Source: a bacterium
Lineage (GTDB): Bacteria; Myxococcota_A; UBA9160; UBA6930
Direction of reading: 5' to 3'
DNA length: 64,000 nucleotides
Assembly (NCBI GenBank): GCA_024226235.1
Contig: JAAELW010000238.1
Coordinates: forward strand, 3,046-67,045
Of this stretch, positions 10,106 to 54,711 are shown piece by piece. The notes below the pieces were generated by a model, which saw nothing but the letters and a program-made list of their open reading frames with translations, did no database searches and was not told the DNA's origin. The position numbers and the translations under genes are program-made. Each line of letters starts with the position of its first letter. The stretch's first letter is position 1.

Positions 10106-12040
10106 ATGTCACTGCTCCAAAGCCGCCTGGGCCGGGTTCGGCTTGCGCTGGCCGGGCTGCTTGGCGGCCTGGTGGTGCTCCTGGTCCGCAGCGAGAACCC
10201 ATGGACCGCGGGGGTCGCGCGCGCGCTGGAACAGGGCAGTAGCCCGAGGTCCGTCGACTACTGGGCCAGCCATGGCTGGGCCTTCGGAGTCGCCGATGCT
10301 GTGCTGTTGGCAGTGCTGATCCTGTGGGCAAACCACTGGTTGGGGCCGCGCGAGGTGCCGCGGGTGGGCCGCCTGACGCCACGCGAGATGCCCCGCGTGG
10401 CCGGCCTGACGCCACGTTCTTCGAGCAGAGCAGTGATCGGGCTCGTGGCGGCGGCCATGCTGGTGGGCGGAAGCCTCGGCGCGACGCGGCTCTCCTTCGG
10501 CCTGTGGGACGACGAGGTCTACAACGTCTACCGCTCGATCCACGGTGGCTGGGGTCTCGACAGGAAGAGCGGTGAGTACAAGTACCGCAAGGTGCGGTGG
10601 GCCAACACCCTCTGGTACTACAGGATCCCGAATAACCACGTCTTTCATTCCATCCTGGCGCGCGTCGCCTCGGAGATCCCCGAGAAGAGACAAGACCGGT
10701 TGGTGAACGAGGTGGCTGTGCGGATGCCGGCCTTCCTCGCGGGGATCCTGTCGATCGGAGCCATCGCCTGGTTCCTGTGGCGGATGGGCTTCCCCGGGGC
10801 GGGGGTCTTCGCGGCCTGGCTGCTCGCGCTGAACCCATGGGCGCTGCGCTACATCGCCGAGGCGCGGGGCTACTCGCTCGCGATGCTGCTCGTAAGCCTC
10901 ACCTTCGTGGCGGCCATCTCGGCGCTTCATCATGGGCTGTGGCGCAGGTGGCTGTGCTTCGGCCTCGTGCAGTTCCTGCTGCTCTGGAACCTTCCTTCGA
11001 TCCTCTGGATCGTGGTCGTTCTGAATCTCGCCCTTCCCGTGTCGATCTGGCACTTCAATGCGGAGCCCGAACCCCGCCGGGCATTCCTGACGCGGTGGGC
11101 GGCAGCAAATCTGATGGGGGCGATGCTGTGGCTGCCGCTGATGGCCCCGAACGTCGCGCAGCTCTTCGCCTACTTGGCCCGCAACGCGGGCAACTGGGTG
11201 GGTCCGGGCTGGCCGGCCAGGATTGCCAGCCATCTGATCGCGGGCATGGACTGGAAGCACGGCGGCTCTCCTGTCTATCCGGAGCTTTCGGCGGGTTTCG
11301 CGGCCCATCCGCTGCTCGCCGGAGCGACCTTCGCGGTGGCAGCCCTGGCGGTCGCGCTGGGCGTGGCACGACTGTGGCGGGCGGGCGGCATCGCCCGGCA
11401 CCTCTCGTGGGCCCTGTGGCTTCCGTTGCTCCTTACCTATCTGCAGCTGAGTTTGGGCCACGACCGCACGTACATCTGGTACTTCGTGATCTTCCTGCCC
11501 GGAATCCTTGCGCTGGCGGGTCTGGGCGCGGCCTGGCTGGCGGAGAGCGCCCGCACGCGACCTCGCTGGCTGGCGGGGGTCGGGGTCTGCCTGGCCTTCT
11601 TCGCTGCGTACACCTGGCTGGGCTCCCCCGCACGCGAGGCGCTTCGAGCCCGCCCGTACTATCCGACCCGCGATGCGGTTCTGCTGACCCGGCCGAACCT
11701 CGATCCGCTCTCCCCCGAAAACCAGCGCATCCTGACGGCCTCCTGGGCGGCCGGGCCGGTCTACTACGACCCGCGGATCCGTTACGTGTTGGAGCCCGGC
11801 CTGCTCCAGCAAGTGATGGATGAGGCCGACGCCACGGGCTTCCCCCTCTACATCAACCTCGGCGTGTATGGTCACGCGGCAGAGCGGTCGCCAGAGAACC
11901 TCGCGATCGTCGAAGATCCGAATCGCTTCGAGAAGGTCGATGTCCTGCCGGGCTTCATTCCCGCCCGAACCCGATATGTCTACCGGTACCTGGGTTCAGA
12001 GGTGGTGTCCGGCCCCACGGTGTCCGTGCCGAGCCCCTGA
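10106..12040 (+). CDS. Polytopic membrane protein, GT-C-type (ArnT/PMT-like) glycosyltransferase candidate
   Basis: Many hydrophobic helices. An acidic motif FGLWDDEVYNVY sits in an early loop, as in GT-C glycosyltransferases, and there is a soluble C-terminal domain. I recognise no closer family. Confidence 0.55.
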   Translation: MSLLQSRLGRVRLALAGLLGGLVVLLVRSENPWTAGVARALEQGSSPRSVDYWASHGWAFGVADAVLLAVLILWANHWLGPREVPRVGRLTPREMPRVAGLTPRSSSRAVIGLVAAAMLVGGSLGATRLSFGLWDDEVYNVYRSIHGGWGLDRKSGEYKYRKVRWANTLWYYRIPNNHVFHSILARVASEIPEKRQDRLVNEVAVRMPAFLAGILSIGAIAWFLWRMGFPGAGVFAAWLLALNPWALRYIAEARGYSLAMLLVSLTFVAAISALHHGLWRRWLCFGLVQFLLLWNLPSILWIVVVLNLALPVSIWHFNAEPEPRRAFLTRWAAANLMGAMLWLPLMAPNVAQLFAYLARNAGNWVGPGWPARIASHLIAGMDWKHGGSPVYPELSAGFAAHPLLAGATFAVAALAVALGVARLWRAGGIARHLSWALWLPLLLTYLQLSLGHDRTYIWYFVIFLPGILALAGLGAAWLAESARTRPRWLAGVGVCLAFFAAYTWLGSPAREALRARPYYPTRDAVLLTRPNLDPLSPENQRILTASWAAGPVYYDPRIRYVLEPGLLQQVMDEADATGFPLYINLGVYGHAAERSPENLAIVEDPNRFEKVDVLPGFIPARTRYVYRYLGSEVVSGPTVSVPSP

Positions 12041-13380: not shown

Positions 13381-14076
13381 ATGGCAGACGACGGGACCCG
13401 GAACATGATCGAGGGCATGCTCGCCCAGCTCGAAAAGGAGAAGATGGCGGGCCTCTCGATCGACGATCTCCGAGATGCGATGATGGCGCCCGGTGCAGCC
13501 GAGTCCGTGGCGGAGCTGATGCCGATCGAAGCGGCGTCGGTGCAGCAGGGTGAACCGGCGCCGGATTTCGATCTGGCGTGGCTTCCAGGCAGTGGTCCCG
13601 AAGGAGAAACGCTTCGGCTCTCCTCCCATTTCGGCGACCGACCGGTGGCACTCGTATTCGGCAGTTACACCTGACCGCCTTTCCGGGCCCAGGCTGGGTC
13701 CATCAACCGCATCTACCGCCGCTTCAGGGATCAAGTCGCCTTCTACGTCGTCTACATCAAGGAGATCCATCCGACCGACGGCTGGCAGGTGAAGGAGAAC
13801 GAGCAGGACGCGGTGCTCTTTACACAACATCAGTCGATGGAAGAGCGCGTAGAAGTTGGCGAGGCCTGCATGTTGAAGCTCGCGCTGGAGCCTCCGGCTG
13901 TGGTCGATGAAATGGACGATGCCGTTGCGCGGAACTATGCGGCCGTGCCGGAGCGGCTCTACCTGATCGGCGCCGACGGTCGTGTGGCCTACAAGGGCGG
14001 CATGGGTCCGATGTTCTTCCGGCCCGATGAGTGGGAGGCCGCGATCGAGAGCCACATCGAGAGCACTGGCAAGTAG
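13381..14076 (+). CDS. Deiodinase-like thioredoxin-fold selenoprotein (in-frame UGA = Sec at 13672-13674), soluble form
   Basis: ORFs 13381-13674 and 13789-14076 share one frame, and TGA is the only stop between them. The joined protein reads ...RPVALVFGSYT-U-PPFRAQAGSINRIYRRFRDQVAFYVVYIKEIHPTDGWQ...RLYLIGADGRVAYKGGMGPMFF..., collinear with the iodothyronine deiodinase core. GAGGAG RBS lies before the ATG. Confidence 0.85.
13672..13674 (+). other. Predicted selenocysteine (UGA) recoding site
   Basis: TGA sits between GSYT and PPF, at the position of the catalytic Sec in deiodinases. Confidence 0.8.
13685..13701 (+). promoter_or_regulatory. Candidate bacterial SECIS-like hairpin
   Basis: GGGCCC-AGGCU-GGGUCC forms a 6-bp stem (one G:U pair) with a 5-nt loop containing GG. 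It starts 11 nt after the UGA. Confidence 0.4.
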
Positions 14077-14083
14077 CCCGCTC

Positions 14084-15127
14084 CTATAGCTGCGAAAGGT
14101 AGGCCTCCATCACGGGCTCGAGGTGGTCGGGGTTGAAGCCGAACGGGCCGATTCCCGGGTTGTAGATCACGCGGCCTTCCAGATCGATGAAGTAGATTCG
14201 AGTGGGCCGTGCCGTGTAGAGCGTGGCCACGCGGTTGTCCATCGCATCGACGTAGAGCGGGACGACGCCCTCGAACAGGTTGGCCTGGCAGCTTGCGGCC
14301 ACCCGTTGCCGCTGGGCCAGAGTCACCGGTTCCTTGATGTCGGTACGCGCGCGCTGGCCCGTGAGATCGTTCACGAGCCGCTGGGTACGTGAGCGGCCGA
14401 GCCACCAGCGATCGGTGGGATGGGCTTCCTTGATGTAGACGACGATGAACTCGACCCGATCGTGATACCGCTCGTAGAGGTCTTTGAGACGCACGGTCCC
14501 ATTGCTGAAGGGCGGTCACGTGTAACTGCCAAAGACCAGCGCAACGGGGAGCCTGCCCCGGAAGTCAGAGAGCCGGACCTGGGCGTTTCCCTCCGGGTCT
14601 AGGAGTTCGAAATCCGGTGCCAGATCGCCGGCCTTGGGAGATTTCACATCCTGGGCGAGCTGCCACGTGATCTCTTCATTGCGCCACTCGGCGGCCTGAA
14701 CCAGCAGATCCGTTCCGAGCGTCAGATTGTCCTCGCCCTCCCAGACCATGAAGAAGGACACCACCGCCGCGATCGCGACCGCACCCCCTCGGACGAAGCG
14801 ACCCGGGGAGCGCCGGTTTTCGGAGAGCCCACGTGCGACGTGGAGGAGCAACGCGAATGCTCCAAGCCCGGCCACCAGCGAGACCATCATCGGGGCACCC
14901 CACATCAGGGGCGCCAGCAGGAGAAGGCCCAGCAGCAACCGCAACGCACCGGCTCGGTGGTGCAAGAACAAGCCATGCGCACCGCTGGCAAGCAGGTAGC
15001 AGGAGAGGGCCGCGTGGAAGAAGGCGATCGCTGCGTGGAGGCCATAGACGAGCACGGTCCACAGCAGGTTGGTGGTGTCGACGACGGTTTCATAGCTGGG
15101 GTCCATCGGAGCCTCCACGCCGGGCAT
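14084..15127 (-). CDS. Membrane-anchored deiodinase-like thioredoxin-fold selenoprotein (in-frame UGA = Sec at 14516-14518)
   Basis: ORFs 14516-15127 and 14084-14494 share one frame with no other stop. The N-terminus has about four hydrophobic helices. It continues ...DLAPDFELLDPEGNAQVRLSDFRGRLPVALVFGSYT-U-PPFSNGTVRLKDLYERYHDRVEFIVVYIKEAHPTDRW...IYFIDLEGRVIYNPGIGPFGF. Confidence 0.85.
14485..14501 (-). promoter_or_regulatory. Candidate bacterial SECIS-like hairpin
   Basis: Minus-strand UGGGAC-CGUGC-GUCUCA forms a 6-bp stem (one G:U pair) with a 5-nt loop. It starts 15 nt after the UGA. Confidence 0.35.
14516..14518 (-). other. Predicted selenocysteine (UGA) recoding site
   Basis: Plus-strand tca is TGA on the minus strand, in the same GSYT-U-PPF context as the paralog. 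Confidence 0.8.
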
Positions 15128-15224: not shown

Positions 15225-15902
15225 ATGCTTCGAGTGAGGACCCATACGCCCCGGATCGACGATCTCCGGTGGGCAAAGCCGGCCCATCAAGCCCGCAGCC
15301 AGCGCACCCTCGAGCTCCTGCTCGACGCGGCTGAGGCCGAGATCCGTGAGAAGGGCTACGCAGATGCGTCGGTCGCGGAGATCGCGCGTCGCGCGGGGTG
15401 CTCGGTCGGGACCGTCTACCGGCGGTTTCGCGACAAGACCGCGCTGCTCCACGCCCTCGACGAACGCTGGGGGGCGGCGTTCCGTGCCACGATGGAGGAT
15501 GCGGTCGCGCCCGAGCGCTGGCAGGGCGCTCCCATTCTCGAAGTGTTGACCGGCTACATCGCGTTCACACTCAACGAGGGTCACGAGCGTGCCGCACTGC
15601 AGCGCGCCGCGATCACGATGGCCTCGCGTGACGCCAGCTTTGCGGAGCGGCAGATGAAGCTCGCTTCCGAGCTTCATGCGGGACTGCGCGCACTACTCAC
15701 CGCGCGGATCGACGAGATCGGCCACGCCGATCCTCCGCTTGCGATCGAATTCGCACTCGAGCAGTTGAGAGCCATGCTGATGCTTCGTCTGGCTACGCTT
15801 CCGCTCGAAGCGACACTGTTTGGCAATAGTGATGAGCAGTTCATCGATCAGGCCTTGACCAGTATCGCGGCCTATCTGAAGCTCGAACCGCTATCCGCAT
15901 AG
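15225..15902 (+). CDS. TetR/AcrR family transcriptional regulator
   Basis: HTH region: TLELLLDAAEAEIREKGYADASVAEIARRAGCSVGTVYRRFRDKTALLHAL. The gene ends 21 nt before the molybdoenzyme alpha gene. Confidence 0.9.
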   Translation: MLRVRTHTPRIDDLRWAKPAHQARSQRTLELLLDAAEAEIREKGYADASVAEIARRAGCSVGTVYRRFRDKTALLHALDERWGAAFRATMEDAVAPERWQGAPILEVLTGYIAFTLNEGHERAALQRAAITMASRDASFAERQMKLASELHAGLRALLTARIDEIGHADPPLAIEFALEQLRAMLMLRLATLPLEATLFGNSDEQFIDQALTSIAAYLKLEPLSA

Positions 15903-15923: not shown

Positions 15924-18902
15924 ATGGAAGAACGGAGCACACCGAAGGCCACTGCCGAGGCTACTGGCGGCAAGGCTCCCGCCGCGGGGCTGAGCCGTCG
16001 CCGCTTCCTTCACCTCAGTGGGCTCGGTGTGGCATCGCTGCCGCTGCTCCACTTCGAGAGTACGCCCGCGCGTGCGGCCGCCACGGCGAAACCCAAGCTC
16101 CTGAGCTGGGAGGATCTCTACCGGGAGCGCTGGACCTGGGATCGCGTGGCGAAGGGCTCCCACGGCTGGCTGAACTGCCGCAGCGCGTGCAACTGGGACC
16201 TCTACGTAAAAGATGGGATCGTCGTCCGAGAGGAGCAGGCGGCGAACTACGAGGCTTCGGAGCCCGGGGTACCCGATTTCAATCCTCGTGGTTGTCAGAA
16301 GGGCGCCTGCTACACGGAGGTGATGTATGGCCCGAGCCGACTGACGGTTCCGCTCAAGCGGGCCGGCGAGCGGGGAGAGGGCAAGTGGAAGCAGATCGGC
16401 TGGGACCAGGCCCTCCGCGAAATCGCCGAGAAGCTGATCGACATCTGCCAGCGGTATGGCGGCGAAGCGCTCGTCCAGGATCTGGGCCCCCACTTCGATC
16501 TCGGTGCAACCAATGCGGCTCGCAACCGATTCTTCGGCATGTTGGGTGCGTCTCTCCCCGATGACTGGGCGGAGATCGGGGACCTGAACATTGGCGCGAC
16601 GCTCTCGCTCGGAATCCCGCACATCGGAGGCTCTTCCGACGAGTGGTTCCTCTCGGACTTCCTGGTGGTCTGGATGATGAACCCCTCCGTCACCCAGATG
16701 TCCGATGCCCATTTCCTCTACGAGGCGAAGTACAACGGCGCGGAGCTGGCGGTGATCGACCCCGTCTACAGCGCCACCGCGATGCACGCGGATCAATGGG
16801 TCCCGATCCGGCCCGGCAGTGACGCAGCGCTCGGGCTGGCCACCGCGCGCCACATCTGGGAGAGCGGGCGGATCGATCTCGACTACGTCCGGGAGCAGAC
16901 CGACCTTCCCATCCTGGTCCGCCTGGATACCGGACGCTTCCTCCGCGAGTCGGATCTTCGCACGGGAGGGGCGGACGACCTGCTCTACCTCTGGGACTCC
17001 AAGCAGGACGCGCTCGTCCCTGCACCGGGCTCCCAGGGCAACGACGAGCGCGTAAAGCTCTTCCTGGAGGGACTCGAGCCCGTGATCGAGGGGCGCTTCG
17101 AGGTGGACCTCGCCGACGGCACCCGCATCGGGGTAGCGCCCGTGGGCTCACTACTGCGCGAGCACCTCGATCCATGGACCTTCGAGCGCGCGGCTGCGGT
17201 CACCGGCCTGGACGCTGCGGTGGTCGAGCAATTCGCCGAGGGCTTCGCGGCAGCCGAGCGGCCGATGGTGCTCTCGAGCTGGGGATCGAATCGCTACCTC
17301 CACTCAGACCTGATCAATCGGACCAAGCTGCTCTGCCTCTCGCTGAAGGGAGCGATCGGCAAGAAGGGCGCCGGCTACCACTCCACTGGCTGGGTCGGCA
17401 TCGATGGATTTGGCCAGGTTGCCCAGGACGCCGGAGAGGGTTTCATCGGAACGCTTCGCGGAATGGCGAAAGTGTTCGGAAGCGCCAAGGTGATCGGCAT
17501 GCTGGTGGACCAGATCGCCGGCAAGAAGTCCGAGGCGCAAGTCCAACACGAGCTGACGCGTCACCTGACCACCGGTGAGGATTCGTGCCTGACCAACTCG
17601 GCCAGCCAGAACTACAAATTCCAGGGCCTGGCCGACGATCTCGCGCGTGAGCAGGACCACCTGTATCCGCAACCGCTGGCTGCCTACGTGGCGGAATCCG
17701 AGGCCAAGGGCTGGATGCCCACGCATCCCGCGAAGGGCACCCGACCGCGCTGTTGGGTGACCGGGGGCAGCAACGTGCTGCGACGCACGAACCTGCCCCA
17801 GCGCATGCTCGAAACACTCTGGCCAGGGCTCGAACTCGTGATCGACGTGAACCAGAAGCACACCTTCACGGGGCTCCACGCCGACTACCTCCTGCCTGCT
17901 GCCGGCTACTACGAGAAGCCGGGCATCAAATACTCGGTGGCCTACGTCCCCTACCTGCACTACTGCGACCGGGCGGTGAAGCCGGTCGGTGAGGCGAAGG
18001 ACGAGTGGGAGCTCTACTCGCTGCTGGCCCGGGAGATCCAGCGGATTGCCCAGGAGCGCAACCTCGAGCCGACCCAGGGCTGTGGCACCCAGACGGTCGA
18101 GCTCAAGACGTTTGCCGACCGTTTCTCGTTTGCCGGAGAGTACGGGCCCGAGGATGTGGAGGCGGTCAACCAGTTGATCCTCGAGAAGAGCCCCTCGGCA
18201 GAAGGAATGACCGTCGAGAGCCTCAAAAAGACCGGTATCGCCAAATATCGGAGCGTCGGAGGGATGGGGATCCAGGAGAACCTCTTCAATTCGGATTGGA
18301 AGGGAGAGGGAATGATGCGTGCGCTCACGGACATGAGTGAGCAGCGCTGGCGCTGGCCGACATTGACCGGAAGGCAGCAGTGCTACATCGACCATCCGTG
18401 GTTCATCGGGGCCGGTGAAAGCCTGCCCGATCACAAGGAGAGCCCGAAGGCCGGCGGTGACCATCCGTTCCAGTTCGTTTCGTGCCACTCTCGCTGGAGC
18501 GTCCACAGCGTGTGGCGCGACACCACGATGCTGCTGCGCCTGCAACGTGGAGAGCCGGTCGTGTATCTGAACCCGGCCGAGGCTCAAAGGCTCGGAGTCG
18601 AAGACGGTGCCTGGGCCGAGATCAGCAACGACTACGGCAGCATCCTGATGCGCGCCAAGCACTCCGCCATGGTGCGTCCGACTGTGGCGTACTACTTCCA
18701 TGCCTGGGAGCCGCATCAGTTCCCGGAGCACAAGAGCTACAAGTGGTTGATTCCGGGTTTGATGAACCCACTGCATTTTGCGGGCGGAGAGGGACACCTC
18801 GGCTGGTTCTTCGGTCAGTACACGCCGGGCACCCACGTGCAGGACACGCGCGTTGCCATTGCACCCTCGAATGGCCCGCAGCGGCAGGGAGAACAGAGTT
18901 GA
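15924..18902 (+). CDS. Type II DMSO-reductase-family molybdoenzyme, catalytic alpha subunit (NarG/EbdA-like), Tat-exported
   Basis: Twin-arginine signal LSRRRFLHLSGLG. FS0 motif SHGWLNCRSACNWDLYVKDG...NPRGCQKGAC. NarG-like ...TQMSDAHF segment carrying the expected Mo-ligand Asp. Confidence 0.9.
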   Translation: MEERSTPKATAEATGGKAPAAGLSRRRFLHLSGLGVASLPLLHFESTPARAAATAKPKLLSWEDLYRERWTWDRVAKGSHGWLNCRSACNWDLYVKDGIVVREEQAANYEASEPGVPDFNPRGCQKGACYTEVMYGPSRLTVPLKRAGERGEGKWKQIGWDQALREIAEKLIDICQRYGGEALVQDLGPHFDLGATNAARNRFFGMLGASLPDDWAEIGDLNIGATLSLGIPHIGGSSDEWFLSDFLVVWMMNPSVTQMSDAHFLYEAKYNGAELAVIDPVYSATAMHADQWVPIRPGSDAALGLATARHIWESGRIDLDYVREQTDLPILVRLDTGRFLRESDLRTGGADDLLYLWDSKQDALVPAPGSQGNDERVKLFLEGLEPVIEGRFEVDLADGTRIGVAPVGSLLREHLDPWTFERAAAVTGLDAAVVEQFAEGFAAAERPMVLSSWGSNRYLHSDLINRTKLLCLSLKGAIGKKGAGYHSTGWVGIDGFGQVAQDAGEGFIGTLRGMAKVFGSAKVIGMLVDQIAGKKSEAQVQHELTRHLTTGEDSCLTNSASQNYKFQGLADDLAREQDHLYPQPLAAYVAESEAKGWMPTHPAKGTRPRCWVTGGSNVLRRTNLPQRMLETLWPGLELVIDVNQKHTFTGLHADYLLPAAGYYEKPGIKYSVAYVPYLHYCDRAVKPVGEAKDEWELYSLLAREIQRIAQERNLEPTQGCGTQTVELKTFADRFSFAGEYGPEDVEAVNQLILEKSPSAEGMTVESLKKTGIAKYRSVGGMGIQENLFNSDWKGEGMMRALTDMSEQRWRWPTLTGRQQCYIDHPWFIGAGESLPDHKESPKAGGDHPFQFVSCHSRWSVHSVWRDTTMLLRLQRGEPVVYLNPAEAQRLGVEDGAWAEISNDYGSILMRAKHSAMVRPTVAYYFHAWEPHQFPEHKSYKWLIPGLMNPLHFAGGEGHLGWFFGQYTPGTHVQDTRVAIAPSNGPQRQGEQS

Positions 18903-19936
18903 GCAAGCAACAAGCGAGCCGTCAGGTCGCGATGGTGATGGACCTGAACAAATGCCTCGGTTGCCAGACGTGTACGGTGGCCTGCAAGAAGCTCTGGAAT
19001 CGGGAGTCCGGCGCCGACTACGCGTACTGGAACAATGTCGAAACCATGCCGGGAAAGGGCTATCCGGGGCGATGGCAAGAGACCGGCGGCCGTCACGTCG
19101 ACGCTTCGGTCAAACGCGGCGAGCTTCCGAGCCTCGAACGCGACTACGGACGGGCGTGGAAGTTCAACCATCAGGACGTCGTCCGCTCGAACTCCAAGCG
19201 GGGGGACACCTGGCTTCGCCCGGAAGGCGATCCAAAGTGGGGTCCGAACTGGGACGAGGATCGTGGCGCGGGGAACTATCCCGAAGACAACCACTACTTC
19301 TACCTGCCTCGGATCTGCAACCACTGCACTCATCCGGCATGCCTGGACGCCTGCCCGCGCGCCGCGATCGAGAAACGGGACGAGGACGGGATCGTGTTGG
19401 TCGACCAGGATCGTTGCCACGGCTACCGCTTCTGCGTCGAGGCCTGCCCCTACAAGAAGGTCTTCTTCGATCCGGAAAGGCAGGTCGCGAACAAATGCAT
19501 CTTCTGCATGCCCCGGGTCGAACAAGGGGTGGCACCGGCCTGTGCGCGCCAATGCCCGGGGCGGATGCGCTTCGTCGGCTACCTGGATGACGAAGACGGA
19601 CCCATCCACAAGCTGGTATACGGCTGGAAGGTCGCGCTGCCGCTGCATCCGGAGTACGGGCTCCTGCCGAATGTGTTCTACGTCCCGCCGATGAGCCCGA
19701 GCGCGATGGATGCGAACGGGAAGCCGACGGAAGCGCCGCGCATTCCGATGGAAACCCTCGAGGGCCTGTTCGGACCCAGCGTACGCGAAGCGCTGGCGAC
19801 CGTCGAAGCCGAGCGCGCCAAGCGAAAACGGGGGGAGCCGAGCGAGCTGATGGACCTGCTGATCGCCTACGACTGGAACGAGAATTTCCAGCTCGGTGCG
19901 GGCGGGTCGGTCTGGCCGCGCGAAGGGAGGGCGTGA
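18899..19936 (+). CDS. Type II DMSO-reductase-family beta subunit (NarH/EbdB-like, four Fe-S clusters)
   Basis: Cys groups CLGCQTCTVACK, CNHCTHPACLDACP, CHGYRFCVEACPY (second Cys replaced, 3Fe-4S type) and CIFCMPRVEQGVAPACARQCP. I propose TTG 18899 as the start, overlapping the alpha stop; ATG 18932 is the alternative. Confidence 0.88.
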   Translation: MSKQQASRQVAMVMDLNKCLGCQTCTVACKKLWNRESGADYAYWNNVETMPGKGYPGRWQETGGRHVDASVKRGELPSLERDYGRAWKFNHQDVVRSNSKRGDTWLRPEGDPKWGPNWDEDRGAGNYPEDNHYFYLPRICNHCTHPACLDACPRAAIEKRDEDGIVLVDQDRCHGYRFCVEACPYKKVFFDPERQVANKCIFCMPRVEQGVAPACARQCPGRMRFVGYLDDEDGPIHKLVYGWKVALPLHPEYGLLPNVFYVPPMSPSAMDANGKPTEAPRIPMETLEGLFGPSVREALATVEAERAKRKRGEPSELMDLLIAYDWNENFQLGAGGSVWPREGRA

Positions 19937-20493
19937 TGGCGACGAGCCCCGGGAAGATCGAGCTGATTGCTGCACCCATCGGAATACAACCGGGTGGCTA
20001 TGTCCCGAAGGCCTACGCAGGCCGTGACAAGGCCCCGATGACACCGAGCCTCGAACTGGAGGTGGCGCAGCCGCCCGGAGCCTGGCGTCTGCGCCTGCGT
20101 TGGCCCTGCGCCGAGCCGGTCGTCGACGTGAGCGAGGATCCCTCGCTCTTCCCCGACGCGGCGGCGCTGTTCTCCCCCCAGCAAGAGGATACGCCCTGGG
20201 TCACGATGGGTGCGCCCGGCAACGGGGTGGATGGCGTGCTCTGGCGGGCCGATGGCGAACGCCTTCACCGCATTTCCGCCGAGGGTCTTGGCAGCATGAC
20301 GCGGTCCGACGCCCCGGAGAGCTGGCGCTCCAGCGCTGCGCACGAACGGGGCTTCTGGCAACTCGAGTTCACGCTTTCGGGCTGGGCCAGCTTGGATCGT
20401 TCGAAGAGAGTGGCGGTGGCCATCTGGCGCGGCTCGGCCCAGGATCGGGGCGGGCTCAAGTCCGTGACCGGGGGCTTTCTGGAGGTCGGGTGA
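19933..20493 (+). CDS. EbdC/NarM-like (EB_dh domain) putative heme-b gamma subunit, with no recognisable signal peptide
   Basis: ...DAAALFSPQQEDTPWVTMGAPG...VAVAIWRGSAQDRGGLKSVTG resembles the EB_dh heme-b domain, with candidate Met and Lys ligands. The start overlaps the beta stop. Confidence 0.65.
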   Translation: MMATSPGKIELIAAPIGIQPGGYVPKAYAGRDKAPMTPSLELEVAQPPGAWRLRLRWPCAEPVVDVSEDPSLFPDAAALFSPQQEDTPWVTMGAPGNGVDGVLWRADGERLHRISAEGLGSMTRSDAPESWRSSAAHERGFWQLEFTLSGWASLDRSKRVAVAIWRGSAQDRGGLKSVTGGFLEVG

Positions 20494-21432: not shown

Positions 21433-21522
21433 TCCGCACGACACCACCCTCGCGAGTTCCCGCCGAGTGACTCGCACTGGGCCTTTGCATGTGCCAGCAT
21501 GGAACACGTTGGAGGTGCACGG

Positions 21523-22521
21523 ATGACGGATGTCCATCGGATCTGGGGGGCGGAAATATCCCCCTACTCAGTGAAGGTTCGCTCGTACTTTCGTTACAAA
21601 GCCATTCCCCACGAGTGGATCGTGCGCGGACCGGCCGAGATGGAAGAGTTCCAGAAGTACGCGAAGCTTCCGCTGATTCCCGCCGTGGCCACGCCTGAAG
21701 GCGAGGGGATGCAGGATTCGACTCCGATCCTGGAGACGATCGAGGCGCGCAACCCGGAACCTTCGATCCACCTTGGCGATCCGGTTTCGAATTTCGTCTC
21801 TGCACTGCTCGAGGAGTTCGGCGATGAATGGGGCAACAAGTGGATGTTCCATTTCCGGTGGGCCCGCGAGGCCGATCAGGACAGTACGGCTGCACGCCTT
21901 GCCGCCACGATGGCGCCAGGCGTCACGGGTGAGCCACTGCAGGGGATCATCGACGGTATCAAGGATCGGATGGTGAACCGGGTCTGGTTCGTTGGCTCGA
22001 ATGAACAGACGGCGCCGCAGATCGAACAATCCTTCAAGGACGCCCTTGTGCTGATCGAGGCCCATCTCGAAGGGCGTCACTACTTGTTTGGCGGCCGCCC
22101 CGCGTTCGGGGATTTCGGAATCTGGGGTCAGATCTACAATGCCTGGACCGATCCGACCTGCAAACAGATCATCGAGGCCGGGCACCCGAACGTATTGGCG
22201 TGGGTCCGGCGCATGCTGGATCCGAAGAGCGAGGGCGAGTTCGAGCCATGGTCTGCGCTCGAGCCGACCCTGCTGCCGTTGTTGAAGACCCAGGTCGGAG
22301 GGCTCTTCCTGCCCTGGTCGGAGGCGAATCGGAAGGCCCTGGAAGCCGGCGACGAGGAATTCACGGTCGAGTTGGCTTCCGGCCGGTGGACCCAGAAGCC
22401 CCAGAAGTACCACGCGCGGTCGCTGGCGAAGCTCCGGGAGCGCCTTGCGGCAGTTGCCGACAGGGCTGACCTCGATCCCGTGCTCGAGAGTGCGGGCTGC
22501 CTGCGCTGGCTCCAGGCCTAG
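21523..22521 (+). CDS. Glutathione S-transferase-like protein (long form, about 330 aa)
   Basis: GST N-terminal thioredoxin-like domain: IWGAEISPYSVKVRSYFRYKAIPHEWI...LPLIPAVATPEGEGMQDSTPILETIE. GST_C-like helices: YLFGGRPAFGDFGIWGQI. GGAGGT lies before ATG 21523. Confidence 0.8.
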   Translation: MTDVHRIWGAEISPYSVKVRSYFRYKAIPHEWIVRGPAEMEEFQKYAKLPLIPAVATPEGEGMQDSTPILETIEARNPEPSIHLGDPVSNFVSALLEEFGDEWGNKWMFHFRWAREADQDSTAARLAATMAPGVTGEPLQGIIDGIKDRMVNRVWFVGSNEQTAPQIEQSFKDALVLIEAHLEGRHYLFGGRPAFGDFGIWGQIYNAWTDPTCKQIIEAGHPNVLAWVRRMLDPKSEGEFEPWSALEPTLLPLLKTQVGGLFLPWSEANRKALEAGDEEFTVELASGRWTQKPQKYHARSLAKLRERLAAVADRADLDPVLESAGCLRWLQA

Positions 22522-25340: not shown

Positions 25341-25366
25341 ACACCCTTCATCGGAGGAGGACATTC

Positions 25367-25912
25367 GTGAGACTCGACACCCCCCGCGTTCCGCCGCTCG
25401 ACCCGTCCGAGATGGACGAGAAACTCCGCGAACGGTTTGGGGACCGTCCGATCCTCAACATCTTCCGCACGCTGGCCCAGCATCCCGATCTGATGCGGCG
25501 CTGGCTCGTGTTCGGCAACCATGTACTCGCCAAATCGACGCTACCGGCCCGCGAACGCGAACTGGTGATCCTTCGCATCGGCTATCTGTGTCGCGCTGGC
25601 TACGAATGGGGCCAGCACGTGGAGATCGGCAAGCAGAGCGGCCTGACGGACGACGAGATCACCGCGATCGCAGAGGGTCCGGGTGCAGGTGGGTGGAGCG
25701 AGCTCGACCGGGCTCTGCTTCAGGCCACGGACGAACTGCACGGCGACGCATTCATCGGCGATGCGACCTGGCAGACGCTCAGCAAGCACCTCGATACCCA
25801 GCAGTTGATGGATCTGGTCTTTTCGGTCGGCCAGTACAACCTGGTGTCCATGGCCTTGAACACGCTGGGTGTCCAGCCTGAGCCCGGCTTGGCGAAGCTG
25901 CCCGACGCGTGA
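25367..25912 (+). CDS. Carboxymuconolactone decarboxylase (AhpD-like) family protein
   Basis: LPARERELVILRIGYLCRAGYEWGQHVEIGKQSGLTDDEI...LVFSVGQYNLVSMALN. GTG 25367 is preceded by GGAGGAGG. The upstream part of ORF 24926 overlaps the ACAD gene and is discarded. Confidence 0.8.
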   Translation: MRLDTPRVPPLDPSEMDEKLRERFGDRPILNIFRTLAQHPDLMRRWLVFGNHVLAKSTLPARERELVILRIGYLCRAGYEWGQHVEIGKQSGLTDDEITAIAEGPGAGGWSELDRALLQATDELHGDAFIGDATWQTLSKHLDTQQLMDLVFSVGQYNLVSMALNTLGVQPEPGLAKLPDA

Positions 25913-36873: not shown

Positions 36874-37848
36874 CTACAAGCGTGAGGCCATCCTCGCTGC
36901 TCCTAGCAGCGGCGTCAGCGGATCGAGTGCGATCGCGATCGGGATCTCCGACATCAGGTTCGAGAAGCGACCCTTGTCCAGGAATGCCTGCATGAAGGCG
37001 CCACTCGAAAGGAACGGCAGGATCTTCGGTGCGACACCGCCGCCGATATAGACACCGCCGATGGCCATGCACCGAAGTGCATGGTTGCCCGCCTCGGCTC
37101 CGTAGAGTGAGGCGAACAGCTCGAGGGTCTCCACACAGACCGGGTCCCGTTTGGCGAGCGCGGCATCGGCGATGGCAGCGCTCGCATCGCCCGCCGCGCG
37201 CGCAGCGCAGAGCCACTCCGGTGCGGACGTGTCACGGAACTCGATCAGGAAGTCGTGGATCGAAGCGATCCCAGGGCCGGAGATCACCCGTTCCACACTC
37301 ACTCGGCCCCCGAGTTTGGCCCGAAGGTGGTGGAGCAGCGCCACATCGCGCTCGGTCCGGGGAGCGAAGTCCGCATGTCCGCCCTCGGATGCGGTCGGAG
37401 TGTGCTTCTCTCCGTCGAAGAAGAGCATGGCCTCGCCAAGCCCCGTGCCGGCTGCGATCACGGCGGCATTCCCCCTTCGCACCCGTCCCTGTTGCAAGGA
37501 GTGAAGGGAAGCCTCCGGAAGTTCGAGCATTCCGAGGCCTGCGGCCTCGAGATCGTTCAGGAGTTTCACCCGGCAGCCGCCGAGCGCCAGCCCGAGAGCC
37601 TGCTCGTCGAGCTTCCACGGAAGGTTCGTCGTCTGCGCACAACCATCAATGATGGCCCCGGCTACACCGAAGCAGGCTGCGGTGATCTCCGTGGGGTATT
37701 CGGAGCGGAAGGCTTCGACGACCTCCTCGAAAGTGGGGTGCTCCTGGCTCGGGAAGATGGCCATCTCCCGCCTCTCCAGGCTTCCCTCATGAGTGTCGAA
37801 CAATGCAAGGACAGTCTTCGTGCCACCGATATCACCAGCGAGAATCAT
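36874..37848 (-). CDS. glk: Glucokinase
   Basis: MILAGDIGGTKTVLALFD...AACFGVAGAI...IGGGVAPKILP. Confidence 0.92.
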   Translation of the reverse strand: MILAGDIGGTKTVLALFDTHEGSLERREMAIFPSQEHPTFEEVVEAFRSEYPTEITAACFGVAGAIIDGCAQTTNLPWKLDEQALGLALGGCRVKLLNDLEAAGLGMLELPEASLHSLQQGRVRRGNAAVIAAGTGLGEAMLFFDGEKHTPTASEGGHADFAPRTERDVALLHHLRAKLGGRVSVERVISGPGIASIHDFLIEFRDTSAPEWLCAARAAGDASAAIADAALAKRDPVCVETLELFASLYGAEAGNHALRCMAIGGVYIGGGVAPKILPFLSSGAFMQAFLDKGRFSNLMSEIPIAIALDPLTPLLGAARMASRL

Positions 37849-38621
37849 GACGCCTCCAGTGCCTGCGGCAGCGCTGCAGCCGCGGCCTCGTCCACGAACC
37901 AGGTCAAGGCGCCGTCTCGAGGCACCACCGCCTGGGCCGGCAAATCCCGCGGTCTTCGCGGGCCCGCGAGCACTTCCGCCAACTTCGTTGCTTTGTCCGG
38001 CCCGGTCACCAGGAACAGCACTTCCCGCGCCCGCTGCAGGATCGGAAGCGTGAGCGTGATGCGCGGCACCAGACCTGCCGGATGGTTTGGGGCGACCCAG
38101 CGGTGAGTCTCCGCGAGTGCCGTGCTGCCCGGGAAGAGCGAGGCCGTGTGTCCATCAGTGCCCATTCCAAGCAGCACGAGATCGAAACGTGGTGGCTCGC
38201 CCATGGGGTCGGACCCGAAAACGCTCGCAATCTCGCGCTGGTAGTCTTCGCTTGCTGCAACGAGATCACTGGCTTCTCCGTGCATCCGATGGACCTGGGC
38301 CGATGTGGCATGGATCGGACCCAGCAGGCCGTCCTGGGCAAAGCGGTAATTGGAGTCGGCATGGTCGGGAGGCACGGCTCGTTCGTCTCCAAAGAAGAAA
38401 TCCACGTGTTCCCAGGAGACGAGCGGCTGCGACGCGCTGCCGAGAAGTGAATACAGGTGCCCGGGCGTCGATCCCCCAGAGAGCACCAGCCTGAAACGAC
38501 CGCGCTGCTCGATGGCCTTGGAGGCGACTTCGGTGAGGAACTCGGCGGCAGCAGAAGCGACGCCAGCCTGGTTCCGGAACCGCTCGATGTGGATTCCGCC
38601 CAAGGCCAGGTCCGGCTTCAC
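37845..38621 (-). CDS. pgl: 6-phosphogluconolactonase
   Basis: RFRLVLSGGSTPGHLY...VLLGMGTDGHTASLFPGS. The GTG start overlaps the zwf stop (GTGA). Confidence 0.9.
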   Translation of the reverse strand: MKPDLALGGIHIERFRNQAGVASAAAEFLTEVASKAIEQRGRFRLVLSGGSTPGHLYSLLGSASQPLVSWEHVDFFFGDERAVPPDHADSNYRFAQDGLLGPIHATSAQVHRMHGEASDLVAASEDYQREIASVFGSDPMGEPPRFDLVLLGMGTDGHTASLFPGSTALAETHRWVAPNHPAGLVPRITLTLPILQRAREVLFLVTGPDKATKLAEVLAGPRRPRDLPAQAVVPRDGALTWFVDEAAAAALPQALEAS

Positions 38622-40153
38622 GGCTGCCTCCAGCTCCGGTCGCGGGTGCCTCCGATCAGACGATCCGCCTCGATCGGACCCCAGCCGCCAGCATCGTATT
38701 CGGGAAGCCAACGGGCACCGCCGGCCGACCAGGCTTCGAAGATCGGATCGATGAAACGCCACGAAGCCTCGACAGCGTCGCGTCGCATGAAGAGCGTCGA
38801 ATCTCCGGCCATCACGTCGAGGAGCAGCCGCTCGTACGCCTCGGGGGACGGCTCCTGGAAGGAGTCTCCGTAGCCGAAGTCCATCTGGACGGGGCGCACC
38901 TTCACCTTCGGTCCGGGCAGCTTCGCCGAGATGCCGAATGCGAAACCCTCTTCGGGCTGCAGCCGCAGGGTCAACACATTGGGCGTCAGCAGATGCTCGG
39001 GGTCGCGGTTGAAGAGCGTATGCGGGACGTGCTTGAACTGGACGGCGACCTCACTCGTCCGCTTCGGGAGGTTCTTGCCTGTCCTGATGTAGAACGGAAC
39101 GCCGGCCCAGCGCCAGTTGTCGATGTAGACCCGCATCGCGACGTAGGTTTCGGTCGTCGAATCGTGTGCGACGCCAACTTCCTGCCTGTACCCAGGTACG
39201 GCAGTACCCTCGGACGAGAAGCCAGCGCCGTATTGAGCGCGAACCACCTCTCGCCCGACATCCTCGCCGCGAATCGGCCGGAGGCTCTTCAGTACGGCGA
39301 GCTTGTGGTCTCTCACGGCCTCAGGATCGAGGCTCCAGGGCGGTTCCATGGCTGTCATGCACAGGACCTGGAGGATGTGGTTCTGCACCATGTCGCGCAG
39401 TGCTCCGGCCTCTTCGTAGTACCCGGCCCGGGTTCCCACTCCCTCCGCCTCGGCGACGGTGATCTGCACGTGGTCGATGTACTTCTGATTCCACAACGGC
39501 TCGAGAATCGTATTCCCGAAGCGCATCACCAGGATGTTCTGAACGGTCTCCTTGCCCAGGTAGTGGTCGATGCGGAAGATCTGCCGCTCGTCGAAGGCCT
39601 GGGCAAGAGTCTCGTTCACGACCTCGGCACTCTGCAGGTCGTGGCCGATCGGCTTCTCCACGATGATCCGGGAGAAATTCACCGGATCTTCGGCGTCGGA
39701 AACCAGGCCTGCAGCGCGGAGCTGCTCGATGCAGGTTGCAAAGCGGCTCGGAGGGATCGACAGGTAGAAGATGCGGTTCGGCGGCAGGCCGGCTTCCAGC
39801 TCGACCTCCTCAATGCGGCGTCGCAGCTGAACATAGCTCTCCGGATCATCGAGTGAGCCGGAATGGTAGAAGAGCTTGGATTCGAACTCAGCCCAGTGGG
39901 TGCGTTCCGGCGCCTGGCGGGAGAACTTCTCGGTGCCCTCACGGGCGAATTGTCGGAAACCCTCGTCGCCGAGTTCCTTGCGGCCCGTACCGATCACTGC
40001 GATCTCGGACGGCAGCACGCCATCCATCGACAGATTGTAGAGAGCCGGGAGCAGCTTGCGTCCCGCGAGATCACCGCTTCCCCCGAAGATCACCAGGGTG
40101 CACGGCGAGGGCGCAGGATCCGCTCCGACGGACTGGAGCGGTTCCGTACTCAC
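38618..40153 (-). CDS. zwf: Glucose-6-phosphate dehydrogenase
   Basis: [20 protein letters not shown]...[15 protein letters not shown]. The GTG start overlaps the gnd stop (GTGA). Confidence 0.95.
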
Positions 40154-41127
40154 GAACCGGTCTCCACGTGTCCGCCGAACTGCTTGCGCATGGCCGAGAG
40201 CACCTTCTCTGCAAAGGTGTGGTCCTGGCGCGAGCGGAAGCGGGCGTAGAGTGAGGCGGTGAGGACCTCGGCCGGCGTACCGGACTCCACCGCGGCCTGC
40301 ACCGTCCAGCGTCCTTCCCCCGAGTCCTGGACACTGCCTGAGAACTCTTCCAGGTCCGGGCTCGCCTGTAGTGCGATTGCGGTCAGGTCGAGCAACCACG
40401 AGCCCACGACACTTCCGCGACGCCACAGCTCGGTGATCTCGCCCAACTCGAGCGGGAATCGGAATTCGTCGGAAACCGTATCGCCGCCCTGGCAACGCAT
40501 GATGTCGAGACCCTCGGCATACGCCTGCATCAGGCCGTACTCGATTCCGTTGTGGACCATCTTCACGAAGTGTCCCGCCCCAGGCGGACCACAGCGCAGG
40601 TAACCCGCCTCCGCGGTTCCCTGCCCAGACGGCCGCCCCGGAGTGCGTTCGACGTCACCCTGGCCCGGCGCCAGCGCCTTGAAGATCGGGTCGAGGCGCT
40701 CCGCCACGGCGGGCTCCGCTCCGATCATCAGGCAGTAGCCACGTTCCAGGCCCCATACGCCGCCGCTGGTCCCGACATCCGCGTAGTGGATTCCGCTCTC
40801 GGCAAGGGTCGCGGCTCGGCGCACGTCGTCCTTGTACATCGAGTTTCCACCATCGATGATCGTGTCTCCGGATGCGACCAGCTCGGCCAGTTGCCCGACG
40901 GTCGTCTCGGTGGCCGGACCCGCGGGAACCATCACCCAGATCGCCCGCGGTGCCTCGAGCTTGTCGACCAGCGCCTGAAGGGAGCTCGCGCCTACCGCGC
41001 CTTCATCTTCAAGGCTTCCGACCGCTTCGGGGTCGAGATCGAAGACCACGCATTCGTGGCCGGCACGGATCAGACGCCGAACCATGTTCGCGCCCATCTT
41101 CCCAAGGCCTACCATTCCCAACTGCAT
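40150..41127 (-). CDS. gnd: 6-phosphogluconate dehydrogenase, decarboxylating (short, about 325-aa form)
   Basis: [19 protein letters not shown]...[12 protein letters not shown]...[32 protein letters not shown] lies before ATG 41127. Confidence 0.9.
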
Positions 41128-41206
41128 GTTGTTTCCTCCTGTTCGATCGTTCGTGGCGATCCGAGTTCTTGATGGCCGGTCGACCGCAGATGGGCTGCGC
41201 TCTCCG

Positions 41207-43291
41207 TCAGCTACGTTCTCCGAACGGGTCATTGCCCTGCATCGCTTCGTGAGCGGCCTCGACGACGCGCTCCGTCGTGAAGCCGAACCGCTTCTGTAGC
41301 TCCGCCAACGGCGCGGAAGCGCCGAAGGTCTCCATCCCGATGCGAACACCGGTCGGCCCCACATAGCGTTCCCAGCCGAATACAGACGCCTGCTCGACGG
41401 AAACTCGCGCCTGCTGCTCCGGGGGCAGCACCTGGTTTCGGTAGGTCGCATCCTGGCGCTCGAAGAGTTCCCAGCACGGCATGCTCACCACCCGAGCAGA
41501 CACGCCCTCACTGTTCAGCTTCTCCCAGGCTTCGACGCAAAGCGAGAGCTCGGTCCCGGTGCCGATCAGGATCACGTCCGGATCCCCATCGGAGGCATCT
41601 GCAAGCACGTAGCCACCGCGAGCGAGGCCTGCTGCTGGTGCGTAGAGTTGCCTGTCCAGGGTCGGCATCGCCTGGCGCGAGAGCACCAGCACCGCCGGTT
41701 CGTGGCGAAGCTGCATGATCACCCGCCACGCCTCGGATACCTCGTTGGCGTCGCCTGGCCGGATCGTCAGCAAGCCGGGAATGGCACGCAACGAAGCGAT
41801 CTGCTCAATCGGTTGATGCGTCGGGCCGTCTTCGCCCACACCGATCGAATCGTGGGTGAACACGTGGATCACCGGAATTTCCATCAGTGCAGCGAGCCGC
41901 AGTGCCGGCCGGGCATAATCACTGAAGATCAGGAAGCCCGATCCGAAGGGGCGCAACTTCGCTAGGGACAAGCCGTTCATGAACGAGGCCATGGAGTGTT
42001 CGCGCACTCCAAAGTGGAAGTTCCGGCCCGCGGGTTCTTCGGCCGAGAAATCCCCAGCTCCGTCGAAAACCAGGCTCGTCTTCGTCGAGGGGCTGAGATC
42101 TGCGGAGCCTCCGAGCAGCCAGGGCACGTTCTCCGCAACCGCATTCAAGACCTTGCCTGAAGCCTCGCGGCCGGCCAAGCCCTTGGGGTCTGTGGGAAAA
42201 ACCGGGAGATCGGCATCCCATGCCTCCGGAAGCTGTCGGTGCTGCATCCGGTAGAGCTCATCAGCGCGCGCGGGATGCTCTTCGCGATAGCGTTCGAAAT
42301 CCGCCATCCAGGCTTCGCGGAGTTCGTGGCCGCGACGGCCGATGCCTTCGGCGAAGTGCTCCTGCACGCCCTCGGGCACATGGAATGCCTCATCCTCGGG
42401 CCACCCGTAGGCGCGCTTCGTGAGGCGGACCTCCTCCTCTCCGAGCGGTTCACCGTGAGCGCTGGGCGTGCCTTCCTTGTGCGGCGAGCCCCAACCGATA
42501 TGACTCTCGACGATCAGCAGCGTGGGCCGATCCTCGGTCGCGCGGAAGGTCTCCAGTGCTGCGGTGGTCGCGTCGAGATCGTTGGCGTCCTCAACGCGCA
42601 GCGTGTTCCAACCGTAGGCCTGGAAACGTGCGGCCACGTCCTCAGTGAAGGCCAGATCCGTACTGCCCTCGATGGTGATCTGGTTGCTGTCGTAGATCCA
42701 GCACAGATTCGACAGGCGGAGATGGCCCGCCAAGGAGGCTGCTTCCGCGGAAACCCCTTCCATCAAACAGCCATCACCGCAGATCGCATACACATCGTAG
42801 TCGAACAGGTTGTGGCCCGGCCGATTGAATTGTGCGGCCTGCGCGCGTTGGCCCGTGGCGATTCCGACGCTGGTCGCGACACCCTGGCCGAGGGGACCCG
42901 TGGTCATCTCGACACCCGAGGTCCAGCGGTATTCGGGATGCCCGGGGCAACGGCTATCGAGCTGCCGGAAGCGTCGGATGTCGTCCAGCGAGACCGCCGG
43001 CGAACCCAGCGTTTCGTACTTCGTGTTGACGGCTTTCACACGACTGAGATGGAGCATCGAGTACAACAACATCGAGGCATGTCCCGCCGAGAGCACGAAT
43101 CGATCCCGGTTGGGCCAGATGGGATCCTGGGGATCGAACCGCAAGAAACGCTGCCAGAGGCAATACACCACCGGCGCCAGTGCCATCGCCGTACCCGGAT
43201 GTCCCGAGTTGGCGGCCTGGACCGCATCGATGGAAAGGGTGCGAATCGTGTCGATCGCGCTGGTTTCAATTTCGTTGGGCGGCATGCTCAT
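41207..43291 (-). CDS. tkt: Transketolase
   Basis: [20 protein letters not shown]...[12 protein letters not shown]...[16 protein letters not shown]. Confidence 0.96.
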
Positions 43292-46155: not shown

Positions 46156-46481
46156 GAATAGCCTCCTGTTTCCGGGATACCTGGCTTGCGCAGGCACCAC
46201 ACCAGGGAACTAACGGCGTTTCGCTTTGGGAGCCTGAGACTCCAACCGGGCGGGTTTCAAATCGCACGAATCAACGCTGGCTTCCCTCAGGCTTTGGCGT
46301 TTCAAAATGGAATCCGCCCATCGGTGGAACACCTGTGTCATCCATCCTTCGGCGGATCCGATCACCCGCCAGGGGATTCATCAAGGCTTCTCTGTATGGC
46401 GGGAGCGAGTCGCAAACCCTGAAATCACCCCCGCTACCGACTTGCCCTTGCGTCCGACCGGTCGGTCGGGTTACGGTCCAC

Positions 46482-54264: not shown

Positions 54265-54711
54265 TCATCCTGAGGAGAGGGAAGGGTGGTGCGGGCTCTC
54301 CCAAACAACCTTGTAGTTCCGCTTCTCTACGCGATGGTTCGGGCGAAGTGCAAGGACCTTCTCCCAGCCAGTCCCCGCCAGCGGAGTATCGACCCGTGCC
54401 TGCCCCATTTCATCGCCGTAGAGTTCGATCAGATAGGCAACGATGCGTTGTACCGGCGAGGCGGGGATCAGCGGAGGCGTCGGATGCGCAGCCTCGAGTT
54501 GGTCGAGGATGTCACTCGTGTCCTGCCACATGTCCCCGTCCGGCGTCTCGACGGCCGGAAAGTAGTGCATACCCGTCCTGCGCTTGATTTCGAGGATGTC
54601 GGGCATCACCTCACGCATCCATAGAGTCTTGTGAGCAAAGGCAGGGCGCAGTTTTCCGGAGAAATAGGACACGTCGGCGCCGTGCATGATGTGGGGGGCG
54701 TTATGGGTCAT
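54265..54711 (-). CDS. Short GST-N-domain protein (possible internally deleted paralog of 21523-22521)
   Basis: MHGADVSYFSGKLRPAFAHKTLW...FPAVETPDGDMWQDTSDILDQLE...AYLIELYGDEMG parallels the N-terminal third of the long GST-like gene. It then jumps to a short tail. Confidence 0.55.
   Translation of the reverse strand: MTHNAPHIMHGADVSYFSGKLRPAFAHKTLWMREVMPDILEIKRRTGMHYFPAVETPDGDMWQDTSDILDQLEAAHPTPPLIPASPVQRIVAYLIELYGDEMGQARVDTPLAGTGWEKVLALRPNHRVEKRNYKVVWESPHHPSLSSG

Follow-up and report, generated by a model that had tools for sequence, protein, structure and literature searches.

Deiodinase-like selenoproteins of bacteria were first reported in 2005 by Zhang, Fomenko and Gladyshev, who found four selenocysteine (Sec) and six cysteine (Cys) sequences in the Sargasso Sea data, described bacterial SECIS elements, and proposed only 'a redox function' for the family (PMC1088965). 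The GOS data of 2008 contained 22 Sec and 21 Cys deiodinase-like sequences (PMC2398784). Reviews published in 2022 and 2026 describe the function of the bacterial family as unknown, with no experimental work on any member, and give its motif as UxxC (PMC9312934, PMC13188914). This bacterial counterpart of the thyroid-hormone deiodinases is a 20-year-old orphan family.

The 64-kb stretch of DNA analysed here (the window) carries two convergent genes, designated gene A and gene B, that we are confident are genuine and intact Sec-encoding genes of the deiodinase-like family (PF00837), judging from their sequences and those of their relatives. In each, one single UGA occupies the catalytic position of a deiodinase-type domain with a thioredoxin fold. 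A short hairpin with a G in its small apical loop comes a few nucleotides after it, and the UGA codon and the hairpin are conserved together across many phyla.

13381..14076, + strand: gene A, predicted soluble deiodinase-like selenoprotein, from the read-through translation (231 codons including Sec98)

13672..13674, + strand: UGA read as selenocysteine (Sec98) in the motif FGSYT-U-PPF, aligned to the homolog Cys and to Dio3 Sec170

The first open reading frame of gene A (13381..13674, 97 aa) starts at ATG 13381, with GGAG upstream, and ends at TGA 13672-13674. The preliminary description of this DNA had reported a stop at this TGA and a restart in the same frame at 13789 with no stop between them. 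The sequence confirmed this: the frame is open up to TAG 14074-14076, the next listed ORF starting from GTG 13789. The joined translation given in that description was identical to the read-through product, ...VALVFGSYT*PPFRAQAGSINRIYRRFRDQVAFYVVYIKEIHPTDGWQ.... Flanking the TGA, third-position GC was 0.73 and 0.79, both of which are coding-like, and one match to the Pfam T4_deiodinase profile (PF00837, E 9.1e-33, 114 bits, cutoff 27) covered residues 53-223 and ran across the TGA. Because of the third-position GC and the single match spanning the TGA, the read-through frame is considered more than chance. The alignment with orthologs begins at residue 1. The product had been described as soluble, and the highest Kyte-Doolittle value of any 19-mer was 1.05, so that gene A has no hydrophobic segment that would qualify as transmembrane.

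It had also been expected that gene callers would fragment gene A, and this has happened in the public record. On the near-identical contig JAAEUC010000606.1 (GCA_024227775.1), gene A is called as products of 97 aa and 124 aa and gene B is split into 196 aa and 136 aa, which makes four 'hypothetical' fragments altogether; the reading given here corrects this annotation error for both genes. The same TGAs are present in genes A and B of that independent assembly. The term 'hidden' selenoprotein, used earlier for gene A, holds for the gene callers and does not hold for the field, in which the family has been described since 2005 (PMC1088965, PMC2398784, PMC9312934, PMC13188914).

15106..14084, - strand: gene B, predicted membrane-anchored deiodinase-like selenoprotein paralog, from translation and PF00837 (340 codons from ATG 15106)

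14518..14516, - strand: UGA of gene B read as selenocysteine in the motif FGSYT-U-PPF, with TGA in 48/48 metagenomic orthologs

15106..14678, - strand: N-terminal membrane domain of gene B, about four hydrophobic helices predicted from hydropathy

Gene B lies directly downstream of gene A, in convergent orientation, and was absent from the preliminary description. Its ORF ends in '...VALVFGSYT' at the TGA and goes on in frame as 'PPF...VYIKEAHPTD...GIGP', with a match to PF00837 (E 2.9e-25, 89.4 bits, cutoff 27) and 35-38% identity to gene A. The first ATG of the ORF is at 15127; the start at 15106 is supported by the homolog P0121 and by the public gene call. Full-length homologs in the Cys form were found for gene B also (P0121, 69% identical; P0195; P0197), and the codon at the Sec column of these Cys forms is TGC. 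Hydropathy peaks at residues 14-36, 52-95 and 103-122 place the putative helices within the first ~125 residues, and this N-terminal domain is kept across orthologs and is free of cysteine. No Pfam or NCBIfam match to the membrane domain was obtained. A resemblance to DoxX_2 was considered for it and rejected (hhalign probability 0.1).

The deiodinase relationship of gene A was recovered by sequence and by structure. In phmmer searches of PDB sequences, residues 55-225 matched the mouse Dio3 core (4tr3, E 5.8e-24), and Dio2 (9h48) was matched with E 7.9e-19. The motif FGSYT-U-PPF aligns with FGSCTCPPF and FGSATCPPF of the Dio crystals, in which the aligned Cys is the engineered Sec-to-Cys residue; in Dio3 this column is Sec170. 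The same column holds Cys in full-length bacterial homologs, for example P0003 and P0001, the latter a Cys form 63% identical to gene A with the sequence 'FGSYTCPPFRAQAG'. The AlphaFold model of the Cys ortholog P0001 (pLDDT 86.6) gave its best structural matches to 9h48 (TM-score 0.79) and 4tr3 (0.74, both target-normalised). The earlier statements that gene A is collinear with the iodothyronine deiodinase core and that its TGA falls at the vertebrate Sec position are upheld by these matches, and the Cys-containing orthologs that had been suggested as a check are present at full length. On these sequence and model comparisons gene A is assigned to the deiodinase fold family. Both genes also matched NCBIfam NF038285 (deiodinase_rel) over its C-terminal catalytic half only (profile positions ~156-340), at 192.5 bits for gene A and 163 bits for gene B. 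Membership in NF038285 was rejected for both, since these scores are below the curated cutoff of 250 and the N-terminal ~155 residues of that family are missing.

Gene A holds all six residues of the proton relay, Ser95, Thr97, Tyr125, Glu128, His130 and His150. Their counterparts in Dio2 are Ser127, Thr129, Tyr157, Glu160, His162 and His182, and it is for this Ser/Thr/Tyr/Glu/His/His set that a role as the deiodinase proton relay has been proposed (PMC11592359). In the family (n = 78), conservation was 77/78 for the Ser and 78/78 for each of Thr, Tyr, Glu and His130; the position of His150 is His in only 52/78 members and is Pro in gene B. The tryptophan of the HP-x-DGW motif is retained in gene A. 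Cys163 is present in 75/78 family members and in 49/49 of the gene-B family, and on this pattern it is the obvious candidate for a resolver of oxidised selenium. The position of Dio3 Arg275 is occupied by Met208 in gene A and by Ile in gene B. Dio3 Arg275 and its equivalent, Dio2 Lys241, form the clamp for the thyronine carboxylate. Of the 78 family sequences tallied, 73 have A, P, M, I or V here, and neither Arg nor Lys occurs in those 73. Because the carboxylate clamp residue is absent, thyroid hormone appears an unlikely substrate.

If the two genes are translated as proposed, the products would be a soluble enzyme of 231 aa (gene A) and a membrane-anchored enzyme of 340 aa (gene B). From its place at the N-terminal end of helix alpha1, the selenolate would attack an electrophilic atom of a small substrate, with protons supplied through the deiodinase-type relay Ser95/Thr97/Tyr125/Glu128/His130/His150. 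Cys163 would then resolve the oxidised selenium as a selenenyl-sulfide, which a thiol reductant would reduce. By analogy with the animal deiodinases, the single most likely activity would be reductive dehalogenation of small phenolic or aromatic compounds that carry iodine or bromine; this assignment is tentative and stays appreciably short of probable. Peroxide chemistry, or thiol-redox chemistry of another sort, has about the same likelihood as dehalogenation. The features counted against the proposed chemistry were the loss of the clamp Arg275, the presence of His150 in only 52/78 sequences, the Pro of gene B, and neighbourhoods that are not conserved.

The main alternative concerns the chemical step only. 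Here both genes would encode selenoproteins acting as peroxiredoxin-like or thiol-disulfide oxidoreductases and would not be dehalogenases, which we regard as a serious possibility that still falls somewhat below probable. It draws on weak Pfam matches to Redoxin and to AhpC/TSA (PF00578; 27.9 and 30.7 bits, cutoff 26, far below PF00837), on the ResA/TlpA-type oxidoreductases and 1-Cys peroxiredoxins that are the next structural neighbours of the P0001 model after Dio2 and Dio3, with peroxiredoxins ranked below ResA as well, on the absence of the thyronine clamp Arg, and on the general redox role proposed by the discoverers of the family (PMC1088965). However, Dio2 and Dio3 are clearly the best matches in both sequence and structure (E 1e-13 versus 1e-9), and the deiodinase-specific insertion and the relay, by which deiodinases are distinguished from peroxiredoxins, are still present (PMC11592359).

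Conservation of the TGA was followed in related genomes, with one genome taken per GTDB species. At least 590 relatives were returned, and among the best 80 loci, which were examined, 77 had TGA at the Sec codon of gene A and three had TGT or TGC. Represented among these 80 loci are Myxococcota, Dehalococcoidia/SAR202, Binatia, Entotheonella, Planctomycetota, Acidobacteriota and Alphaproteobacteria. The Sec form is common in these best-matching species-representative genomes, which span several phyla. In every TGA locus the frame around the TGA was open for 150 codons or more, and gene A and its orthologs were 59-86% identical before the TGA and 68-87% identical after it. Frame disruptions at varied positions in relatives, which the preliminary description had named as the mark of a true pseudogene, were sought in the best 80 gene A-related loci and none was seen.

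Each UGA is followed by a hairpin of the SECIS type.

13685..13701, + strand: SECIS-type hairpin of gene A, GGGCCCA-GGC-UGGGUCC, 7 bp

14501..14485, - strand: SECIS-type hairpin of gene B, U-GGGAC-CGUGC-GUCUC-A, stem of 5-6 bp

The hairpin of gene A begins 10 nt past the UGA, has a 3-nt loop (GGC) and a folding energy of -11.6 kcal/mol, and is present in both the MFE and the centroid folds. Covariation was measured on an ungapped alignment of 77-78 sequences, with a slid 3' arm and 500 shuffles as controls. In this alignment 86.8% of cells were paired as against 26-52% for the slid controls, and the covariation value was 0.438 as against 0.04-0.11. Changes on both sides were found in six of the seven pairs (85 cells), with G-C, C-G and U-A occurring at one position, for example, and none of the 500 shuffles reached the observed values. 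The search for a bacterial SECIS after the gene A TGA, another check suggested earlier, thus ended in a covarying hairpin at 13685-13701 whose loop starts with GG. The loop starts with G in nearly all gene A-related sequences, and a loop G is the feature by which Zhang et al. define bacterial SECIS elements (PMC1088965). In the distant Cys forms L076, L079 and L081 only 3-4 of the 7 pairs can form, and their local MFE is -1.8 to -6.8 compared to a mean of -10.4. The very close Cys orthologs L138 and L139 still have the hairpin, which is what a recent change from Sec to Cys would lead one to expect.

The hairpin of gene B begins 14-15 nt past the UGA, with a 5-nt loop (CGUGC) and an energy of -6.0 kcal/mol. 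Among 43 distinct sequences, whose proteins share only 45-83% identity, its codons GGG ACC GUG CGU CUC had a third-position entropy of zero, compared to 0.6-1.8 bits in the flanking codons, and the GU of the 3' arm is retained where the amino acid shifts from Arg to Ser or Gly. No covariation was found in this hairpin, the core stem being invariant so that covariation has nothing to act on. The codon pattern indicates constraint at the RNA level, with weaker support than for the gene A hairpin. The whole region after each UGA (windows of 39-101 nt) did not fold more stably than shuffled sequences (z +0.1 to +1.7), so the evidence for both hairpins is comparative and not thermodynamic. These comparative data yield a well-supported SECIS consensus for the bacterial deiodinase-like family.

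In bacterial Sec insertion, SelB-GTP-Sec-tRNASec binds a hairpin of the mRNA that lies immediately 3' of the UGA. By analogy, the hairpins of genes A and B would recruit SelB, and the ribosome would insert selenocysteine at the UGA. From the conserved pairing of UGA and hairpin, together with this SelB/SECIS biology, we infer Sec incorporation in both genes.

A different decoding of the UGA is very unlikely. The codon could be reassigned to Trp or Gly, be read through by a near-cognate Trp or Cys tRNA, or act as a terminator to give two polypeptides, and some database entries do have Trp or Gly in the Sec column (P0026, P0027, P0066, P0105, P0019). These entries are best explained as TGA translated by pipelines under code 4 or 25. 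TGA is the ordinary stop of 29 of the 45 Pfam-supported genes of the window, from which it follows that its organism uses the standard code and that UGA is not reassigned. All true full-length forms have Cys at this column, which is where the catalytic nucleophile sits; both the placement of the hairpin and its loop G are those of a bacterial SECIS (PMC1088965); and the 97-aa N-terminal piece left by termination would be only part of a thioredoxin fold. That the two genes are pseudogenes or sequencing errors, with the TGA a nonsense mutation in a former Cys gene, would agree with the two fragments per gene from gene callers and with the lack of Sec machinery within the 64-kb window, but this reading is extremely improbable and effectively refuted by the comparative data, in which the TGA is at the same codon in 77/80 best loci and 48/48 gene B-related loci across phyla with frames otherwise intact, the residues after it are as conserved as those before, a covarying hairpin follows it in gene A, two paralogs of one genome share the feature, and an independent assembly has the identical TGA.

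15225..15902, + strand: TetR-family regulator, divergent from gene B (PF00440, E 6.7e-16)

The rest of the window was searched for Sec machinery and for further selenoprotein genes. No selA, selB or selD was detected by Pfam among the ~45 ORFs of the window, and no tRNA (ARAGORN) or RNA family (Rfam, including SECIS) was matched in its 64 kb. In the 139 related loci there was no tRNA-Sec and no Sec machinery. A scan of the window for TGA codons flanked by coding-like sequence picked out only gene B and position 54271, the latter a weak and probably spurious candidate; gene A narrowly missed the thresholds used.

The adjacency of genes A and B, and the ACAD, TetR and Mo-enzyme neighbours, were not conserved in orthologous loci. 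Gene A orthologs have an assortment of catabolic or redox enzymes beside them, and the enzymes around orthologs include a Rieske dioxygenase, epoxide and alpha/beta hydrolases, SDRs, GMC and Mo oxidoreductases, and a 'cyclase'. The only recurring pattern was TetR and/or DoxX_2 beside some gene-B-type genes, directly upstream in L087, L092, L102 and L139 and not in most other loci examined. The TetR gene at 15225..15902 is a possible candidate regulator of gene B.

A broader proposal, which is speculative and rather unlikely, is that gene B represents an undescribed subtype: a deiodinase-like selenoenzyme fused to a ~4-helix membrane domain, with its own invariant SECIS and recurrently found beside TetR/DoxX-like genes. 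Paired with the soluble gene A, it might make up a regulated module with a membrane part and a cytosolic part, serving for the reductive dehalogenation or other detoxification of lipophilic marine organohalogens or quinone-like compounds. A non-exhaustive search of the family literature found no separate description of such a subtype. If true, the module would be the first physiological role for bacterial deiodinase homologs.

Compared with the bacterial deiodinase-like selenoproteins described previously, gene A differs in nothing essential: it has PF00837 and a catalytic Sec with Cys homologs and, as far as its sequence can tell, it agrees with the family in every computationally testable criterion. 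Genes A and B both have the hairpin right after the UGA, with a G in a small apical loop, and they come from marine or environmental uncultured bacteria, as does the known family. Gene B differs from the known family in the added N-terminal membrane domain of ~4 helices and in a different, sequence-invariant hairpin. The motif also differs from the UxxC of recent reviews: all 127 Sec forms examined (125 from related loci, and genes A and B) are U-P-P-F, without a Cys at +3. The core shared with NF038285 is the C-terminal catalytic one.

With vertebrate Dio1-3 (4TR3, 9H48), the two genes share the thioredoxin fold with the deiodinase-specific insertion, the FGS-x-T-U-PPF motif, the relay residues, the Trp of HP-x-DGW and ~30% identity over the whole catalytic core, except that gene B is without the second His. 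In contrast to the 3'-UTR element of Dio1-3, the SECIS here is intragenic and of bacterial type. Dio1-3 have a single-pass N-terminal anchor, whereas gene A is soluble and gene B has a multi-helix domain; the clamp formed by Dio3 Arg275 or Dio2 Lys241 is replaced by Met (gene A) or Ile (gene B), and a conserved Cys163 is found here in place of Dio3 Cys239. Three features missing from gene A, namely the clamp residue, a single-pass anchor and a 3'-UTR SECIS, keep it from being a strict vertebrate-type deiodinase. Peroxiredoxins and TlpA/ResA proteins share the thioredoxin-fold core and a nucleophile at the start of helix alpha1, but they are without the deiodinase insertion, usually have a CxxC or Prx motif, and were weaker structural matches.

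What the window adds is a soluble/membrane paralog pair, which offers an experimental entry point, and a list of which active-site residues are conserved and which are not, with the relay retained and the thyronine clamp lost. The pair and the list could guide experiments, although they do not make the question much easier than other members in the databases would. Genes A and B are two further members of a bacterial family that has been known for two decades.

Stop codon usage was tallied for the 45 window genes with Pfam support: 29 ended in TGA, 16 in TAG and none in TAA. Gene A, which encodes the soluble deiodinase-like selenoprotein, and gene B, its convergent membrane-anchored paralog, both terminate in TAG, not TGA.

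The closest Cys orthologs of the two genes were found to retain a SECIS-type hairpin after the TGC codon, with 6/7 pairs in the ortholog of gene A (P0001, L138:2289-2996) and 5/5 pairs in that of gene B (P0121, L139:5001-6062), whereas the hairpin is gone in distant Cys forms. This distribution fits a recent Sec-to-Cys replacement in which the hairpins of L138 and L139 are fossil SECIS elements.

Window features and related loci discussed in the text, with strand in brackets.
10106-12040 (+), 644-aa ORF, strong coding signal, GC3 0.85
15225-15902 (+), TetR gene, divergent from gene B
15924-20493 (+), three-gene operon, ethylbenzene dehydrogenase/type II DMSO-reductase-like from subunit profile matches
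21499-22521 (+), GST-like protein
25343-25912 (+), CMD/AhpD-like protein
36874-46200 (-), glucose/pentose-phosphate cluster, contiguous
L087:2374-3484, L092:888-1562, L102:3114-3584 and L139:3753-4984, TetR and/or DoxX_2 genes upstream of gene-B-type genes

On several unrelated metagenomic contigs, gene-B-type genes immediately follow a gene for a TetR regulator (TetR_C_29), for a DoxX_2 membrane protein or for each of these, and short-chain dehydrogenases are also common beside such genes. In the window, the three-gene operon begins 22 nt downstream of the end of the TetR gene. The alpha subunit (992 aa) matched TIGR03479 with 819 bits and EbdA with 502 bits, and a 4Fe-4S dicluster domain is present in the beta subunit. 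For the gamma subunit, the EB_dh match was weak, at 24.6 bits, and did not reach the cutoff of 33.3. By these matches, the predicted enzyme is ethylbenzene dehydrogenase-like or type II DMSO-reductase-like.

The 644-aa ORF, without a match in Pfam or NCBIfam, is flanked by a Coq4-like gene and an acyl-CoA dehydrogenase gene, the latter upstream of gene A. The sugar cluster contains glucokinase, 6-phosphogluconolactonase, G6PD, 6PGD-like, transketolase and a 970-aa transaldolase-phosphoglucose isomerase fusion. Selenoprotein forms of the CMD/AhpD-like and GST-like families exist in marine bacteria; the reading frames of both window genes are unbroken, and the proteins are therefore presumably Cys or non-Sec forms.

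Five "full-length" database homologs of gene A (P0019, P0026, P0027, P0066 and P0105) carry W (four) or G (one) at the Sec column, most likely because metagenome pipelines read the TGA with genetic code 4 or 25. Such entries represent an additional type of mis-annotation among deiodinase-like selenoproteins. U-P-P-F occurred in 127/127 Sec forms (125 related loci, among L002-L134, plus genes A and B). Two reviews tabulate the motif of deiodinase-like selenoproteins as "UxxC" (PMC9312934, PMC13188914), and none is listed in the 2008 GOS table (PMC2398784). Either the reviews cover a different subgroup or their table entry is wrong.
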